This document shows positions 55,565 to 60,768 of a DNA stretch of 64,000 bases, piece by piece. This stretch comes from an uncultured Spirochaetota bacterium (GTDB taxonomy: Bacteria; Spirochaetota; Spirochaetia; SZUA-6; Fen-1364): NCBI GenBank assembly GCA_963753085.1, contig CAVWBF010000020.1:365-64364 (forward strand), given 5' to 3'. Below the pieces are notes generated by a model, which saw nothing but the letters and a program-made list of their open reading frames with translations, did not search any database and was not told where the DNA came from. How positions within the stretch are numbered: position 1 is the first letter of the stretch; every line of letters begins with the position of its first letter. The position numbers and the translations under genes are program-made.

Positions 55565-57289
55565 CTACGCATTCATCATCTCATCAATTCCCGCGCCGGC
55601 GGGGACCATGGGCCACACGTTTGCCTCCCGGGAAATCCTGAAGTCCAGGAAGACGGGACGGTCAGTGATCCTGGCAGCCTCCGCGAGGGCCGGCTCGATC
55701 TCGGACGGCTGCAGGATCCGCATGCCGGCGGCCCCGTATGCCTGCGCGAGCTTCACGAAATCCGGCGAGTAGGGCGGACAGGCTCCCCCGGGCGAGGCGC
55801 AATCCGGGGGGCAGTCGACAGCGCGATTGAGGCAGACTCCCGAATAGCGTCGGGCGTGAAAAGACTCCTGCCACTGGCGGACCATTCCCAGGTAACCGTT
55901 GTTGAGGATGGCAACGATGACCGGCACTTTCTCCGCCACCGCGGTGCCGAGCTCCTGGATGTTCATCTGGATGGAGCCGTCCCCCGCGATATCGATGACG
56001 CGTCTGTCCGGGTTGCCGAGCTGCGCGCCAATTGCCGCCGGGAATCCGTACCCCATTGTGCCCAGGCCTCCGGAGGTGAGGAACGTCCGAGGCTCGTGGA
56101 AATCGTAGTACTGCGCCGTCCACATCTGGTTCTGCCCCACTTCGGTGGTGACGATGGCGCTGGGGAATGCCTTCGCAATGGCACGGATGACCTGGCTGGG
56201 CGAAAGTCCGCCGTTGCCAGGGACATCCGCGAGAGGATGCGTGCGCATCCAGTCCTCTGTCTGCGCCTGCCATGCCGCAATTTCCGGCGCTCGTGCGATA
56301 GGCAGGAAATCCTCCAGGAACAGCCGCGCGTCCGCGACGATGGGCACCTCCACCTGCACATTCCGAGCGATGGAGGCCGGATCGATATCCACGTGCACCA
56401 CGGCGGCATGGGGAGCAAAAGTCTTGAGGTTGCCAGTGGCGCGGTCATCGAAACGCGAGCCGATGGCGAACAGGAGGTCGCAGTTCTGCACGGCCATGTT
56501 TGCGGCGTACGTCCCGTGCATGCCCAGCATGCCGAGGAATCTCGGGTTGTCGCTGGGCAGGGCACTGATGCCCATGAGGGAGGCGACCACCGGCACCCCC
56601 GTTCGGGCCACGAGCTCACGGAAGAGCATGGCGCCGCCGGAGATCGTGAGTCCGCCGCCCGCGTAGAAAAGCGGCTTCTTCGAGGCCGCCAGCACCTCGG
56701 CTGCTTTGCGGATCTGCAGGGGATGGCCGCGATAGACGGGGTTGTACCCGCGGATGGACACGGTCTCCGGGAGAGGCTCATCAGAGGCTTCCGTGAGGAC
56801 GTCCTTAGGCACGTCCACGAGGACCGGTCCCGGACGACCCGTCCTGGCAATGTGAAACGCCTCCCTCAGGATGCGCCCGAGGTCCTTCCTGTCCGTCACG
56901 AGGTAGTTGTGCTTCGTGACGGAACGGGAGATGCCGACGATATCCGCTTCCTGGAACGCATCGTTTCCGATCATGTTGCGCGACACCTGGCCGCTGATGA
57001 CGACAAGGGGAACGGAATCGAAGTTCGCCGTGGCAAGGCCGGTGACGGTGTTCGTGGCCCCCGGGCCGCTCGTCACGAGGCACACGCCGACGCGCCCGGT
57101 GGACCGCGCGTAGCCGTCGGCCGCGTGGACGGCGCCCTGCTCGTGCCGGGCCAGGACAAGCCGTATGGCCCTCTCCCCGTACAGGGCGTCGAACGCCGGT
57201 ATGACCACTCCGCCGGGAAAACCGAAGAGGATCTCGACCTTTTCCGCTTTCAGGGCCTCAATGAGAAGAGCGGACCCCGTGCGCTTCAT
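55565..57289 (-). CDS. ilvB: Acetolactate synthase large subunit
   Basis: FGFPGG, RHEQGA, TSGPGATN, GRPGPV, TSGGLGTMG and GDGSIQMN. Confidence 0.94.
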   Translation of the reverse strand: MKRTGSALLIEALKAEKVEILFGFPGGVVIPAFDALYGERAIRLVLARHEQGAVHAADGYARSTGRVGVCLVTSGPGATNTVTGLATANFDSVPLVVISGQVSRNMIGNDAFQEADIVGISRSVTKHNYLVTDRKDLGRILREAFHIARTGRPGPVLVDVPKDVLTEASDEPLPETVSIRGYNPVYRGHPLQIRKAAEVLAASKKPLFYAGGGLTISGGAMLFRELVARTGVPVVASLMGISALPSDNPRFLGMLGMHGTYAANMAVQNCDLLFAIGSRFDDRATGNLKTFAPHAAVVHVDIDPASIARNVQVEVPIVADARLFLEDFLPIARAPEIAAWQAQTEDWMRTHPLADVPGNGGLSPSQVIRAIAKAFPSAIVTTEVGQNQMWTAQYYDFHEPRTFLTSGGLGTMGYGFPAAIGAQLGNPDRRVIDIAGDGSIQMNIQELGTAVAEKVPVIVAILNNGYLGMVRQWQESFHARRYSGVCLNRAVDCPPDCASPGGACPPYSPDFVKLAQAYGAAGMRILQPSEIEPALAEAARITDRPVFLDFRISREANVWPMVPAGAGIDEMMNA

Positions 57290-58965
57290 GGCCTGCCTCG
57301 AATCGCGCCCCGCGACGCCGGACCCACGCTTTCCGCGTAGGCATCCAGGAAGGCGCTCCCGGTGGGCCTGGCGGCCGGGTGGAACTCCGCCATTCTCTTT
57401 TTCCACTCCTCCGCATTTATCAGGAGGTCAAGGGTTTTTCCGGGGATGTCAACACGGATCCTGTCTCCTTCCCGCACGATCCCGATGGGGCCTCCGACAG
57501 CGGCCTCCGGAGCCACGTGGCCAATGGATGCTCCGCGGCTCGCCCCCGAGAACCTGCCGTCCGTTATCAGCGCCACCTCCCGGTCCAGGCCGATCCCGGC
57601 GATTGCCGAGGTGGGGGAGAGCATCTCGCGCATCCCGGGGCCGCCTCGCGGACCCTCGTAGCGGATGACCACGATGTCCCCCCGCTTTATCTTCCGTCCG
57701 AGGATCGCGCTCTGCGCATCCTCTTCGCAGTCGAAGACGCGAGCCGGCCCCTCGTGCACGAGCATGGACGGATCCACGGCCGCCTTCTTGACCACGCAGC
57801 CCTCGGGCGCCAGGTTTCCCTTCAGAACGGCCAGCCCGCCTTCGGCGTGGTACGGTTTTTCAGGCTTCGCGATCCAGGTGCCATCGGGCTCCGCTGCGTT
57901 CTGAAACGTCATCGAAAGGGGATGGCCGGAGATTGTAACGGCTCTGCCGTCCACGTGGCCCAGCCGGGCCAGCGTCTTCAGGACAGCGGGAATGCCGCCC
58001 GCCGCGTGGAGGTGCTCCATGTAGTAGGGGCCGGAGGGAGCGATCGAGCAGAGGTGCGGAACCGCCGAGCTGATCCTGTCGAAGTCTTCCAGCGAGAGCT
58101 CCACCCCCGCGCTTGCGGCGATTGCGGGGAGGTGAAGCGCCGTGTTGGTGGATCCGCCGAGCGCCATGTCGAGGGCAACGGCGTTGAGGAACGCCGCCCT
58201 CGTAAGCACACGGGACGTCCGCAGGTCTTCCCGAACGGCACGGACCGCGGCGCGCCCGCTGTCGCGCGCCAGTCGGCAACGGTCCGCGTGGACCGCGGGT
58301 ATTGTGCCGTTTCCCGCAAGGGCTATCCCGAGCGCTTCCGCCAGGCAGTTCATGGAGTTGGCCGTGAAAAGCCCGGCGCACGAGCCGGTCCCCGGGCAGG
58401 CATCGCATTCGAGCCGGCCGAGATCTTCATCGCTCATTTTCCCCATGCCATGACGGCCGACTGCCTCGAAAACCGCGCCGAGACCCACCTGCCGTCCGCC
58501 CGAGCTTCCCGCAAGCATGGGTCCCCCGGCCACGAGCACCGCGGGGATGTCCAGCCGGGCTGCCGCCATCAGCATCCCGGGGACGATCTTGTCGCAGCTG
58601 GCCAGGAGCACCAGCCCGTCCAGCCCATGGGCCTGGGCAACGATCTCGACGGAGTCCGCGATGAGGTCCCTGCTGGGAAGCGAATACCGCATTCCCCCGT
58701 GCCCCATCGCAAGGCCGTCGCACACGCCGATGGTGCCGAACTCGCAGGCAATCCCGCCCTCCGACCAGATGCCTTCCTTCACGTACTCCGCGAGCCGGCG
58801 CAGGTCCTTGTGTCCCGGGATCAGCTCGCTGAATGAGTTCGCGATCCCGATCATCGGCCGTCCCTCGGAGGCGCGGTCCCATCCCAGCGCATGGAGCAGG
58901 CTCCGGTGTGGAGCGCGCGAGGCTCCCTCCCGCACGGTTCGGCTTCTCAGATCGATTCTTTTCAT
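57286..58965 (-). CDS. ilvD: Dihydroxy-acid dehydratase
   Basis: VCDGLAMGH, CDKIVPG, GGSTN, RYEGPRGGPGMREM and TDGRFSG. Confidence 0.95.
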   Translation of the reverse strand: MKRIDLRSRTVREGASRAPHRSLLHALGWDRASEGRPMIGIANSFSELIPGHKDLRRLAEYVKEGIWSEGGIACEFGTIGVCDGLAMGHGGMRYSLPSRDLIADSVEIVAQAHGLDGLVLLASCDKIVPGMLMAAARLDIPAVLVAGGPMLAGSSGGRQVGLGAVFEAVGRHGMGKMSDEDLGRLECDACPGTGSCAGLFTANSMNCLAEALGIALAGNGTIPAVHADRCRLARDSGRAAVRAVREDLRTSRVLTRAAFLNAVALDMALGGSTNTALHLPAIAASAGVELSLEDFDRISSAVPHLCSIAPSGPYYMEHLHAAGGIPAVLKTLARLGHVDGRAVTISGHPLSMTFQNAAEPDGTWIAKPEKPYHAEGGLAVLKGNLAPEGCVVKKAAVDPSMLVHEGPARVFDCEEDAQSAILGRKIKRGDIVVIRYEGPRGGPGMREMLSPTSAIAGIGLDREVALITDGRFSGASRGASIGHVAPEAAVGGPIGIVREGDRIRVDIPGKTLDLLINAEEWKKRMAEFHPAARPTGSAFLDAYAESVGPASRGAIRGRP

Positions 58966-59016
58966 GACCCCGGTTCCCTCTTTCTTCGCGGCAGCCCGTG
59001 AAGGCGCCGTGGAAAT

Positions 59017-59046
59017 AAAAAAGCCGTTCCCCCGAGGGAGAACGGC
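59017..59046 (-). terminator. Attenuator terminator upstream of ilvD
   Basis: Minus-strand GCCGTTCTCCCTCGGGGGAACGGC followed by TTTTTT. Confidence 0.85.
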
Positions 59047-59079
59047 CCGCTGAATACGCCGTTAGCGGCGCCAGCCGAT

Positions 59080-59205
59080 TTACCCCTCCGGGTGTCGGAC
59101 GCTCCTTGCAAGGAGGCCGATAATAAGGATGAGTCCAAGGATGGAGAGGAGCGAAGATCCACGGGATTCGATGCGCCCGTGCTCTGGCTGACTGCCGCCG
59201 ATCAT
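59080..59205 (-). CDS. Leu/Ile-rich leader (attenuator) peptide, 41 aa
   Basis: MIGGSQPEHGRIESRGSSLLSILGLILIIGLLARSVRHPEG*. It lies between the promoter and the terminator and is below the ORF-track length cutoff. Confidence 0.8.
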   Translation of the reverse strand: MIGGSQPEHGRIESRGSSLLSILGLILIIGLLARSVRHPEG

Positions 59206-59213
59206 GGTAGTCC

Positions 59214-59243
59214 TTTATAACTCTGCGCGGCGACTGCTGTCAA
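59214..59243 (-). promoter_or_regulatory. Sigma70 promoter of the ilv-leu-cim operon
   Basis: Minus-strand TTGACA-N18-TATAAA. Confidence 0.65.
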
Positions 59244-59280: not shown

Positions 59281-60768
59281 TCAGAAGACGGTCCTGCGCT
59301 GTTCGAACGACTTCTGGAGGCGCTCGAGAATCCGCTCGCATTTCTCCCGGCTTGTGATGCCGAACTCGCTGAGGACTGGCCCTTCCATCTGCTCGTACGT
59401 CACGTAGGAACGCTCCAGGTCGCAGAAAGCGTTTGCCAGGTAAACGCAGAAGACCACCTCCTTGTACGCCACGGGAGCGCTGAGAGGATCATGGTGGTGC
59501 TTGATTCCGTAGATGAGCTGATCGGGGAAGTTCCATTTCTTTGCCATGAGGGCCCCGATCTCCGCATGGTTCAGCCCGAAGGAGAATCGCTCCAGGATCC
59601 TCGGGGTGATGTCCTTCTCCTTGCAGAATCTCGTCATCTGCTCCATGGCCTCGGGGTGGAGCCATGTGACGATGATCTGGCCCAGGTCGTGGAGGATGCC
59701 GGAGACGTACACGTCATCCAGGATTTCCCCTCGGGGCTTGAAGCTCCGCGCCAGGAGAAAGGCGTAGTACGCCACCTTGTAGGAATGATCCCACAGGGGC
59801 TTCATCTCCGTGTACTGCTGGCCGAGGATCTTGCGGGCGCCGTAGGAGTACAGGAGGTTGCGCAGTCCCTTCATTCCGACGATCTTCACTCCCTGGAGGA
59901 TGTTGTTGACCCTGCGGGGAAGCACGTAGAACGCGGAGTTCACGAGCTTCAGCAGGTCGGCCGTGAGAACAGGATCCATCGCGATGCGCGCGGAGATCCT
60001 TGCCACGGTGGCCCTGGGGTCTTCCGTGAGCCGGATCAGCTCGAGAATGATCTCGGGGAAGTGGGGCAGGGAGTCCACATCGCGGACGATGGCCTGGGTG
60101 AGCACGTTGATCTTCTCCAGGTGCACCCTGTTCATCGGAATCAGGAGTGAGGCCACCGTCTCCCCGTTTCGCCCCTCGATGGAGAAAGCCTCTTCACCGA
60201 GTCCCAGCCTCTTGAGGAATTGCAGGAGGATGAGGATGCCCAGGCCGGCGCCCTCCTGGGCATCGATCGGGGCGCCGAGGACTTCCATGAAGGAATGGTG
60301 CGCCCGGGAGCGCGCAATGCGGTCGTAGATGCGCGCCTGCTCCCGGGGGGTGAGCTGCGCCGAGTTCCGCACGAGGATTGCAAGGTTTCCGCCGGTCGTG
60401 TGGAAGGTGACGTTGATGAGGAACTGCCGGACGCGAAGGAGGTCCAGCCAGTGCTCCAGGCGCTCCGAGATCTCCCGGCGAAACTCCCGCATGCCTTTCT
60501 CGTAGTCTTCCTCCCGCCAGATATCCAGGCCCTTCTCCTCGAAGTACACGCGCTTGGCGTTTGCTTTCTGGGCGTTGATGATGAGCTCCTTGAGGCAGTA
60601 GGAGAGGGGCTCCATGATTCGCTCCTGTCCAAGCTCGACAAGGTAGGTCTCGAGGATCCTGTCCAGGAGGGCGTGGGAATCGTGCGGAAGGCTGGTGAGC
60701 TTGAAGGTAAGGGGAATGGACCTGAGCGCCGCCCTCTGAATCTGCGCGAGGTCTATCCGGGGAGCCAT
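59281..60768 (-). CDS. HATPase-like + HDOD domain protein
   Basis: The N-half has LKELIINAQKAN and EGAGLG. The C-half has SLPHFP, DPVLTADLLKLVNSAFY, LWDHS and GILHDLG. Its ATG overlaps the upstream stop (TAATG). Confidence 0.85.
   Translation of the reverse strand: MAPRIDLAQIQRAALRSIPLTFKLTSLPHDSHALLDRILETYLVELGQERIMEPLSYCLKELIINAQKANAKRVYFEEKGLDIWREEDYEKGMREFRREISERLEHWLDLLRVRQFLINVTFHTTGGNLAILVRNSAQLTPREQARIYDRIARSRAHHSFMEVLGAPIDAQEGAGLGILILLQFLKRLGLGEEAFSIEGRNGETVASLLIPMNRVHLEKINVLTQAIVRDVDSLPHFPEIILELIRLTEDPRATVARISARIAMDPVLTADLLKLVNSAFYVLPRRVNNILQGVKIVGMKGLRNLLYSYGARKILGQQYTEMKPLWDHSYKVAYYAFLLARSFKPRGEILDDVYVSGILHDLGQIIVTWLHPEAMEQMTRFCKEKDITPRILERFSFGLNHAEIGALMAKKWNFPDQLIYGIKHHHDPLSAPVAYKEVVFCVYLANAFCDLERSYVTYEQMEGPVLSEFGITSREKCERILERLQKSFEQRRTVF

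Follow-up and report, generated by a model that had tools for sequence, protein, structure and literature searches.

A stretch of 64,000 nucleotides (nt) from an uncultured Spirochaetota bacterium (GCA_963753085.1, contig CAVWBF010000020.1; called the window below) carries directly upstream of ilvD, between positions 59243 and 59017, a promoter, a short open reading frame (ORF) with a run of Leu and Ile codons and an intrinsic terminator. We interpret this leader, with a probability of about 0.8, as a ribosome-mediated leader-peptide transcription attenuator which would control the ilvD-ilvB-ilvN-leuA-cimA operon from a leaderless or near-leaderless transcript. A Leu/Ile attenuator had been proposed at this site from the DNA letters and an ORF list (the original prediction). 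All elements named there are found in place on the minus strand, and the attenuator itself gains support from its conservation in 37 genomes and from sister trp and ilv leaders in the same genome. All leader and operon elements lie on the minus strand and are given in window positions (Table 1).

Leader architecture and conservation in Spirochaetia

For the comparison IlvD orthologues were located in related genomes and their upstream regions aligned, which covers 16 species from four families. These 16 ilvD-linked leaders are built alike: TTGACA is invariant, a TAnnnn box follows after 17 nt and an ATG 6-10 nt after this box, the frame of 25-43 codons has a Leu/Ile/Val-rich core and a Pro-(Glu/Gly/Arg)-Gly-stop end, and a strong terminator comes last. 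The layout is thus kept upstream of ilvD in related spirochaetes, a check that the original prediction had suggested. The 16 species have N-terminal ORF parts of different length and sequence, yet the ATG is always in frame with the conserved stop codon. Such a retained frame is expected of a translated ORF but not of an RNA with a structural role only.

A covariance model (R1) built from the 16 aligned leaders detects the element in 60 of 92 genomes of the order (23 of 27 genera), each time with a single match, and in the class 62 of 301 sampled genomes and 42 of 135 genera are matched. Outside the class the model gave two matches in a 401-genome sample of the phylum, both of them ordinary terminators, one after a ClpB-like gene and the other after a tRNA. 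The pooled loci represent 37 distinct leaders. Every one of them has a perfect TTGACA, a TAnnnn box 16-18 nt after the -35 hexamer (with a 17-nt spacer in 30) and an ATG start codon. The distance from the -10 box to the ATG is 9 nt in 19 leaders, 10 nt in seven, 7 nt in five, 6 nt in four and 8 nt in two, and the ORFs comprise 24-44 codons, ending in TAG (27) or TAA (10) and never in TGA. The terminator is conserved as well, and in the consensus fold of the alignment five of its pairs show compensatory changes. Depending on the lineage, the first downstream gene is ilvD, ilvB, leuA or cimA, in every case a gene of branched-chain amino-acid synthesis; therefore the element is tied to this group of genes and not to a single one. 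The same layout in 37 genomes, taken together with the four-hit genome scan described below, lifts the feature beyond chance.

The composition of the ORF core speaks for a coding control element. Across the 14-residue cores of the 37 leaders Leu accounts for 34%, Ile for 28% and Val for 10% (72% together), while Phe (0.4%), Met (0.2%), Trp (0%) and Ala (2.3%) are rare or lacking and several cores contain Asp, Glu or Arg. This composition fits a selection for three codon classes, not for a membrane helix. AT-rich lineages use AUU, CUA and UUA, GC-rich ones CUC, CUU, AUC and GUC, so the amino-acid class is retained despite the nucleotide change; within the genus one core position varies between ATC, GTC and CTC and stays Ile, Val or Leu. 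The original prediction had assumed little input of Val. That is correct for the window, whose leader has one Val codon, located outside the run LLSILGLILIIGLL, but it does not extend to the family, as sister species have two to four Val codons and one lineage has a Val-dominated core (VSVLVVVVVVA). Judged from these codons, Val input is lineage-specific. The Leu codons of the window leader are CTC (four) and CTT (three), with CTG at none of seven positions, although CUG makes up 39% of the Leu codons in the long ORFs of the genome. This restricted use could reflect sensing of a single isoacceptor or merely the need for CU-rich strands.

Concerning the end of the ORF, the Pro-(Glu/Gly/Arg)-Gly ending is found within the order; further out the peptides end in GEYA, QGEA or MRED, yet the G/A-rich nucleotides stay. 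The constraint on this region looks as if it acts on the RNA, as a mimic of the 3' arm of the terminator, and an effect on the speed of termination is also possible.

Sister leaders and the predicted start of the leader transcript

The same geometry was searched for in 3.6 Mb of the host genome with a strict scan: a -35 hexamer matching at least five of six positions, a TA-type -10 box, an ATG 5-11 nt on, an ORF of 12-60 codons and a terminator. Only four hits were obtained, and all four are by their context amino-acid attenuators, two of them ilv and two trp (Table 1). That each of them precedes ilv or trp genes is the strongest single argument we have for a coding control element. A relaxed scan for further attenuators (e.g. 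his, thr) gave 26 hits in this genome, which is 77% complete, and the original four alone were convincing. The promoters of the two Trp leaders read TTGACG-17-TATTTT-6 nt-ATG for MTTKGGSFRTTSMNSINWWWFWG and TTGACA-18-TATATA-9 nt-ATG for MRYVLALSTSMNWWWWITGRKPRSA. The second ilv-type leader, MIQISLRQTRLALVLVVLLPESTPVCAP, lies on a contig that ends about 2 kb past it. Judged from the leaders, the ilvD operon is predicted to sense Leu and Ile while the second acetolactate synthase gene bears a Leu/Val leader, and Val sensing may therefore sit on the latter gene instead of on the ilvD operon.

Two further leaders were noticed in other genomes. A Phe-rich one, MIFGITFFTFAFFSFFCLLLFWQ (L155, G660:C10:138200-140300), has its -10 box 7 nt before the ATG and is followed by a terminator; the gene behind it resembles prephenate dehydratase by eye, so that the design extends to pheA in another family of the class. 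An Ile-rich leader of 24 codons, MRMNIIASISIINLIIAIIGNGEK, stands with a terminator before a citramalate-synthase-like gene (L156, G153:C1:1513300-1515600, minus strand); the spacing of its -35 and -10 boxes is unclear, and it may have an extended -10 promoter.

Sigma-70 promoters normally initiate about 7 nt after the -10 hexamer. By this rule, in the four lineages whose gap is 6 nt transcription would begin with the A of the ATG, and in the others, the window included, 1-4 nt ahead of it. All 37 leaders begin with ATG, and an SD-like (Shine-Dalgarno-like) tetramer occurs within 20 nt upstream of it in only three, so that the two marks of a leaderless mRNA, an AUG start and a missing SD, are both found. 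In the window the AAAGGA motif (59216-59211), 5 nt ahead of the ATG, overlaps the TATAAA box (59219-59214), as the original prediction had pointed out; because SD-like motifs are so rare among the leaders, we regard it as incidental. The promoter geometry predicts a leader ORF that begins at or within about 3 nt of the 5' end of the transcript. Leaderless mRNAs are documented as common in other spirochaetes: Leptospira interrogans has about 440 with an untranslated region (UTR) below 10 nt (PMC5243855), and for Borrelia burgdorferi the number is 85 (PMC5314773). The leader family, taken with the trp and pheA leaders of like geometry, suggests that leaderless initiation is the standard way of loading ribosomes on spirochaete attenuator leaders.

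Table 1. Positions of the leader elements, the operon genes and the strict-scan hits
Feature	Position	Strand	Basis and remarks
-35 hexamer TTGACA	59238-59243	-	Sequence; perfect in 37/37 related leaders, invariant column in the 16-sequence alignment
-10 hexamer TATAAA	59214-59219	-	18-nt spacer from -35; alternative TTATAA at 59215-59220 with 17-nt spacer
Gap -10 to ATG, 8 nt, GGACTACC	ATG at 59205	-	Sequence
Predicted transcription start	59205-59208	-	From promoter geometry, about 7 nt past the -10 box; 5' UTR roughly 0-3 nt
Leader ORF, 41 codons plus TAA (59082-59080), peptide MIGGSQPEHGRIESRGSSLLSILGLILIIGLLARSVRHPEG	59080-59205	-	Sequence; in-frame ATG-to-stop ORF kept in 37 relatives
Control-codon run LLSILGLILIIGLL, 7 Leu and 4 Ile (11 in 14 codons)	59110-59151	-	Sequence
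Segment 1, CUCCUCUCC, first Leu codons	59143-59151	-	Minimum free energy (MFE) folds of untranslated RNA: paired to segment 2 (the ORF end)
Internal hairpin CUCCUU-GCA-AGGAG (AGGAG opposite the Leu-Leu codons)	59102-59115	-	RNAalifold consensus, columns 34-38 with 43-47
AAGGAGCGUCC, 3' half of internal hairpin; alternative partner terminator 5' arm	59107-59097	-	Window fold without the RNA 5' of a stalled ribosome
Segment 2, G-rich end of the ORF with stop codon and the next 10 nt (GGAGGGG-UAA-AUCGGCUG)	59072-59089	-	Best predicted partner of terminator 5' arm (putative antiterminator 5' strand)
AACGGC, antiterminator arm of the original prediction	59058-59063	-	Duplicates AACGGC of terminator 3' arm (59028-59023)
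GCCGTT inside terminator 5' arm, complementary to AACGGC	59041-59046	-	Sequence
Intrinsic terminator, GGGCCGUUCUCC / GGGGGAACGGCU(U), loop CUCG, then UUUUUUAUUU	59013-59048	-	Hairpin -21.3 kcal/mol; stem 59048-59021 with 12 pairs, 7 of them G-C; T-run TTTTTTATTT directly after
ilvD, dihydroxy-acid dehydratase, first structural gene	57286-58965	-	Pfam; NCBIfam TIGR00110, 726 bits
ilvB, acetolactate synthase large subunit	57406-55565	-	Pfam; NCBIfam TIGR00118, 756 bits, above cut-off
ilvN, acetolactate synthase small subunit	55435-54881	-	ALS_ss_C/ACT domains (Pfam)
leuA	54884-53337	-	NCBIfam TIGR00973, 739 bits (cut-off 599)
cimA, citramalate synthase	53294-51675	-	NCBIfam TIGR00977, 598 bits (cut-off 450)
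Scan hit 1, leader described here	59205	-	ilvD operon downstream
Scan hit 2, MIQISLRQTRLALVLVVLLPESTPVCAP (LALVLVVLL)	G000:C28:211427, outside window	+	Terminator, then second acetolactate synthase large subunit
Scan hit 3, MTTKGGSFRTTSMNSINWWWFWG (WWWFW)	G000:C24:59455, outside window	+	Two tandem terminators, then trpE-trpGD-trpCF-trpB-trpA
Scan hit 4, MRYVLALSTSMNWWWWITGRKPRSA (WWWW)	G000:C24, ATG at plus-strand coordinate 35084, outside window	-	Terminators, then TrpB-like (type 2) gene

Alternative pairing, proposed mechanism and rival explanations

The pairing that might prevent the terminator was studied, in place of full-length equilibrium folds, by folding transcripts cut before the 3' arm of the terminator and by scanning for duplex partners of its 5' arm. 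In all lineages examined RNAduplex locates the partner of the 5' arm in a stretch from the last codons across the stop codon to about 10 nt past it. For the window the segment GGAGGGG-UAA-AUCGGCUG forms a duplex of -18.0 kcal/mol with the 5' arm, and values of other families range from -13 to -19. When stretches of 30 nt are compared, the best partner begins between 42 and 6 nt ahead of the stop codon in 36 of the 37 leaders; the energies lie between -10 and -26 kcal/mol, those of the terminators between -16 and -32. Considering single helices in the 16-sequence alignment with its four families, GGAGGG:CCUUCC pairs in 96.6% of the cells and the ORF-internal AGGAGAA:UUCUCCU in 83%. By these results the terminator 5' arm has its predicted conserved partner in the G-rich end of the ORF, around the stop codon.

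The original prediction had given this role to AACGGC downstream of the ORF. A helix of six base pairs between AACGGC and GCCGUU does form in folds of the window, but it is largely species-specific: it pairs in 78.8% of the cells, its central pair is broken in eight of the 16 relatives, and compensatory changes are not found. As it also does not exceed shuffled sequences, AACGGC:GCCGUU was rejected as the antiterminator of the family.

In cut transcripts of five relatives (L002, L003, L007, L009, L011) the 5' arm shows 32-52% pairing, which increases to 84-94% once the A site of the modelled ribosome is placed on the Leu/Ile codons. With a ribosome stalled at codon 28 of the window leader and the RNA 5' of it removed, which mimics trailing ribosomes, AAGGAGCGUCC holds the 5' arm (-29.5 kcal/mol), and with the ribosome at the stop codon the terminator alone remains. 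In the MFE fold of the untranslated window RNA CUCCUCUCC pairs with GGAGGGG; pairing of the equivalent segments 1 and 2 has z < -2 in 10 of the 37 relatives, mainly AT-rich ones. The exact alternative helices should be taken as a model, whose logic matches the classical four-segment scheme with the stop codon lying inside segment 2.

In the mechanism that we infer from the sequence, the sigma-70-type promoter (TTGACA-18-TATAAA) would start the RNA 0-3 nt before the AUG, where a ribosome would load without an SD and translate the 41 codons. With ample charged tRNA-Leu and tRNA-Ile the ribosome would reach the UAA and cover segment 2, which comprises the G-rich end of the ORF and the nucleotides just past the stop codon. 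The hairpin of 12 base pairs with its U-run would then form and transcription would end 47 nt ahead of ilvD. If Leu or Ile is scarce, the ribosome would stall in LLSILGLILIIGLL and mask the CU-rich segment 1, which otherwise sequesters segment 2. The freed segment 2 (AAGGAG and following, GGAGGGG-UAA-AUCGGCUG, aided in this species by AACGGC) could pair with the emerging 5' arm of the terminator, and with the terminator blocked the RNA polymerase would continue into ilvD. Such a choice between the structures would have to be made kinetically. When there is no translation at all, segments 1 and 2 are expected to pair, segment 1 acting as an anti-antiterminator, and the terminator would form.

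Several results weigh against this interpretation. Full-length equilibrium folds hold the terminator at every modelled position of the ribosome. As the terminator wins at equilibrium, the choice between the structures must be a kinetic one, as in the classical cases. From the folding of both conformations, proposed with the original prediction, it follows that the potential for antiterminator pairing is present, but the terminator is favoured at equilibrium in every state. In addition, the cut transcripts of the window itself show no dependence on the position of the ribosome, with 51% throughout, a value which is fixed because AACGGC:GCCGUU forms in every state. The shuffle z of the antiterminator is modest (median -1.26, P < 0.05 in nine of 37), because the G-rich composition alone already gives pairing, and the alternative helices show almost no covariation, owing to the conservation of their sequences. 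Finally, in transcripts reading through from the PAS/HDOD-HD gene upstream AAAGGA would lie 5 nt ahead of the AUG, and ordinary translation of them would be possible in this species.

The last point leads to a reading in which translation of the leader ORF takes place on an ordinary leadered mRNA, derived from an upstream start site or from the HDOD gene, with AAAGGA as its SD; the attenuation logic would be unchanged by this. The position of AAAGGA speaks for it, as does the HDOD gene, which lies on the same strand, ends at 59281, 38 nt before the -35 hexamer, and is separated from the leader by no terminator-like site. However, an SD-like motif is present in three of the 37 relatives, whereas TTGACA-17-TAnnnn-(6-10 nt)-ATG is found in all. 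The gene upstream varies by family and the promoter is retained, with conservation starting at the -35 hexamer, and the three other attenuators of the host genome share the promoter-to-ATG geometry. We therefore hold a leadered mRNA to be unlikely. Considerably less probable still is an incidental ORF within a structured RNA whose ligand is a metabolite or a protein. Within the genus the nucleotides are strongly conserved, third codon positions included (CTC..CTT ATT, CTCCTTGnGAGGAG, CCCGGrAGGGTAG), long-range helices enclose the ORF in MFE folds (window z = -2.4), and weak riboswitch candidates have been published upstream of ilvD in Veillonella and of ilvB in Leptospira (PMC8632094). Across families, however, the nucleotides diverge, while the fixed distance from -10 box to ATG, the open frame and the enrichment of Leu, Ile and Val stay, and the first-position changes ATC/GTC/CTC remain Ile, Val or Leu. 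Moreover, ORFs with runs of Trp and Phe codons and the same geometry precede trp and pheA genes, no Rfam family matches, and Leptospira-like ilvB upstream regions are without such an ORF.

A third reading takes the ORF for the gene of a small hydrophobic membrane peptide which is flanked by its own promoter and terminator and has no link to ilv regulation; it appears to us hardly credible. The run LLSILGLILIIGLL would be long and hydrophobic enough for a membrane helix, but the cores are nearly devoid of F, M, W and A, some carry D, E or R, and conservation concerns only the content of Leu, Ile and Val. In addition the element always stands directly before an ilv, leu or cimA gene and leaves too little room for a second promoter, the distance from T-run to start codon being only about 30 nt in some relatives.

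A helix near the 5' end of the leader was also considered. One relative (L014, G029) can form a perfect helix of 17 base pairs between codons 4-9 and the 17 nt directly after the stop codon (GUGACUGGUUACAGCGU / ACGCUGUAACCGGUUAU), and similar, weaker helices are seen in the window, between 59200-59186 and 59076-59066, as well as in a few further lineages. As a general feature it was dropped, being strong in L014, L133 and L144 with an overall median z of -0.5, and thus lineage-specific.

A much wider proposal would be that all amino-acid attenuators of Spirochaetia (ilv, leu/cimA, trp, pheA) sit on leaderless transcripts, so that the switch reads tRNA charging as well as the capacity of 70S ribosomes for SD-independent initiation, the second input being controlled in some lineages through base pairing of the first codons with the nucleotides downstream of the stop codon (17 base pairs in L014). 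The CUY-only Leu codons, the TAG/TAA stops and the Pro-(Glu/Gly)-Gly-stop end would then be tuned for single-isoacceptor sensing and for a long dwell of the ribosome on the antiterminator. We consider this proposal speculative and rather doubtful.

Operon context and relation to known attenuators

The start codon of ilvD follows 47 nt past the T-run and has its own SD (GAGGGAA); between the terminator and this ATG no promoter-like site was seen. The strand switches after cimA, which delimits the operon as ilvD-ilvB-ilvN-leuA-cimA. The presence of both leuA and cimA in the operon, as assumed in the original prediction, is confirmed by TIGR00973 and TIGR00977.

Among the closest systems known are the enterobacterial ilvGMEDA, ilvBN and leu attenuators (IlvL, IvbL, LeuL; Leu_leader RF00512), where the position of the ribosome sets termination versus read-through. 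They likewise combine a short ORF with a run of Leu, Ile or Val codons, mutually exclusive hairpins (in the spirochaete leaders a prediction) and an intrinsic terminator, and the operons are similar in content (ilvD, ilvB/N, leuA), with the spirochaete operon adding cimA and thereby the citramalate route to Ile. There are clear differences, too. Enterobacterial leaders have an SD-bearing 5' UTR, whereas in the spirochaete leaders the ATG stands 6-10 nt from the -10 box and an SD is not conserved. The stop codon of the spirochaete leaders is part of the predicted antiterminator strand, and no relation between the two groups is seen at the level of sequence or covariance models. A search of the window leader against Rfam gave no family at gathering score; the best match, BcKCsr2, reached 19.8 bits (gathering score 40), driven by the terminator.

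Closer with regard to initiation is ilvBNC of Corynebacterium glutamicum, which has a leaderless IlvL and, in the published model, three hairpins, of which the 5' one is an anti-antiterminator and can block leaderless initiation (PMC11857589). This 5' hairpin resembles the 5' strands of the spirochaete ORF that are predicted to sequester segment 2, and the same class of amino acids would be sensed. The two belong, however, to different phyla and have no detectable homology, the spirochaete family having its own terminator (GGCCGUUCUyCC...) and a G-rich ORF end; also, the 5'-proximal helix is lineage-specific in the spirochaete family, unlike in the C. glutamicum model. Other actinobacterial leaderless leader peptides occur in Streptomyces and Mycobacterium, and the leaderless attenuator design has so far been documented mainly in Actinobacteria.

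In the literature searched there is no report of leader-peptide attenuators in spirochaetes, in agreement with what the original prediction had supposed. While the mechanism is a textbook one, a conserved, class-wide spirochaete family of this kind appears to be undescribed. For the free-living spirochaetes, whose regulation is little studied, it provides a concrete and testable element for branched-chain amino-acid synthesis. The family, with one copy per genome in 42 of the 135 sampled genera of the class, is missing from Rfam and could be curated, and annotation would gain leader ORFs and terminators which are currently unannotated.

From the same phylum the Leptospira "ilvB motif" (WRC-14-1) has been published as a weak riboswitch candidate upstream of a branched-chain amino-acid gene (PMC8632094). 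It was rejected as the same element, because five Leptospira-like ilvB upstream regions have neither a short ORF rich in Leu, Ile or Val nor a leader terminator; unlike in the attenuator family, promoter and SD stand there directly before ilvB. Four such loci (L157-L160; G436, G427, G474, G480) share a conserved stretch ending in ggttcctcTTGACAgtagcctttycggtatctTTATGG, after which the SD and the ilvB start follow without a leader ORF. This stretch is presumably the published "ilvB motif" region and unrelated to the attenuator family.

Two minor observations concern the host genome and the operon. The FlaA sheath protein family (PF04620) matches the host genome four times above cut-off and none of 14 control genomes, which marks the host as a spirochaete. 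The longest ORF for ilvB, with a GTG at 57406, shares 121 nt with the end of ilvD (57286-57406), and the profile matches begin at residues 36-43; the true ilvB start is therefore probably located downstream of this GTG, close to the stop codon of ilvD.

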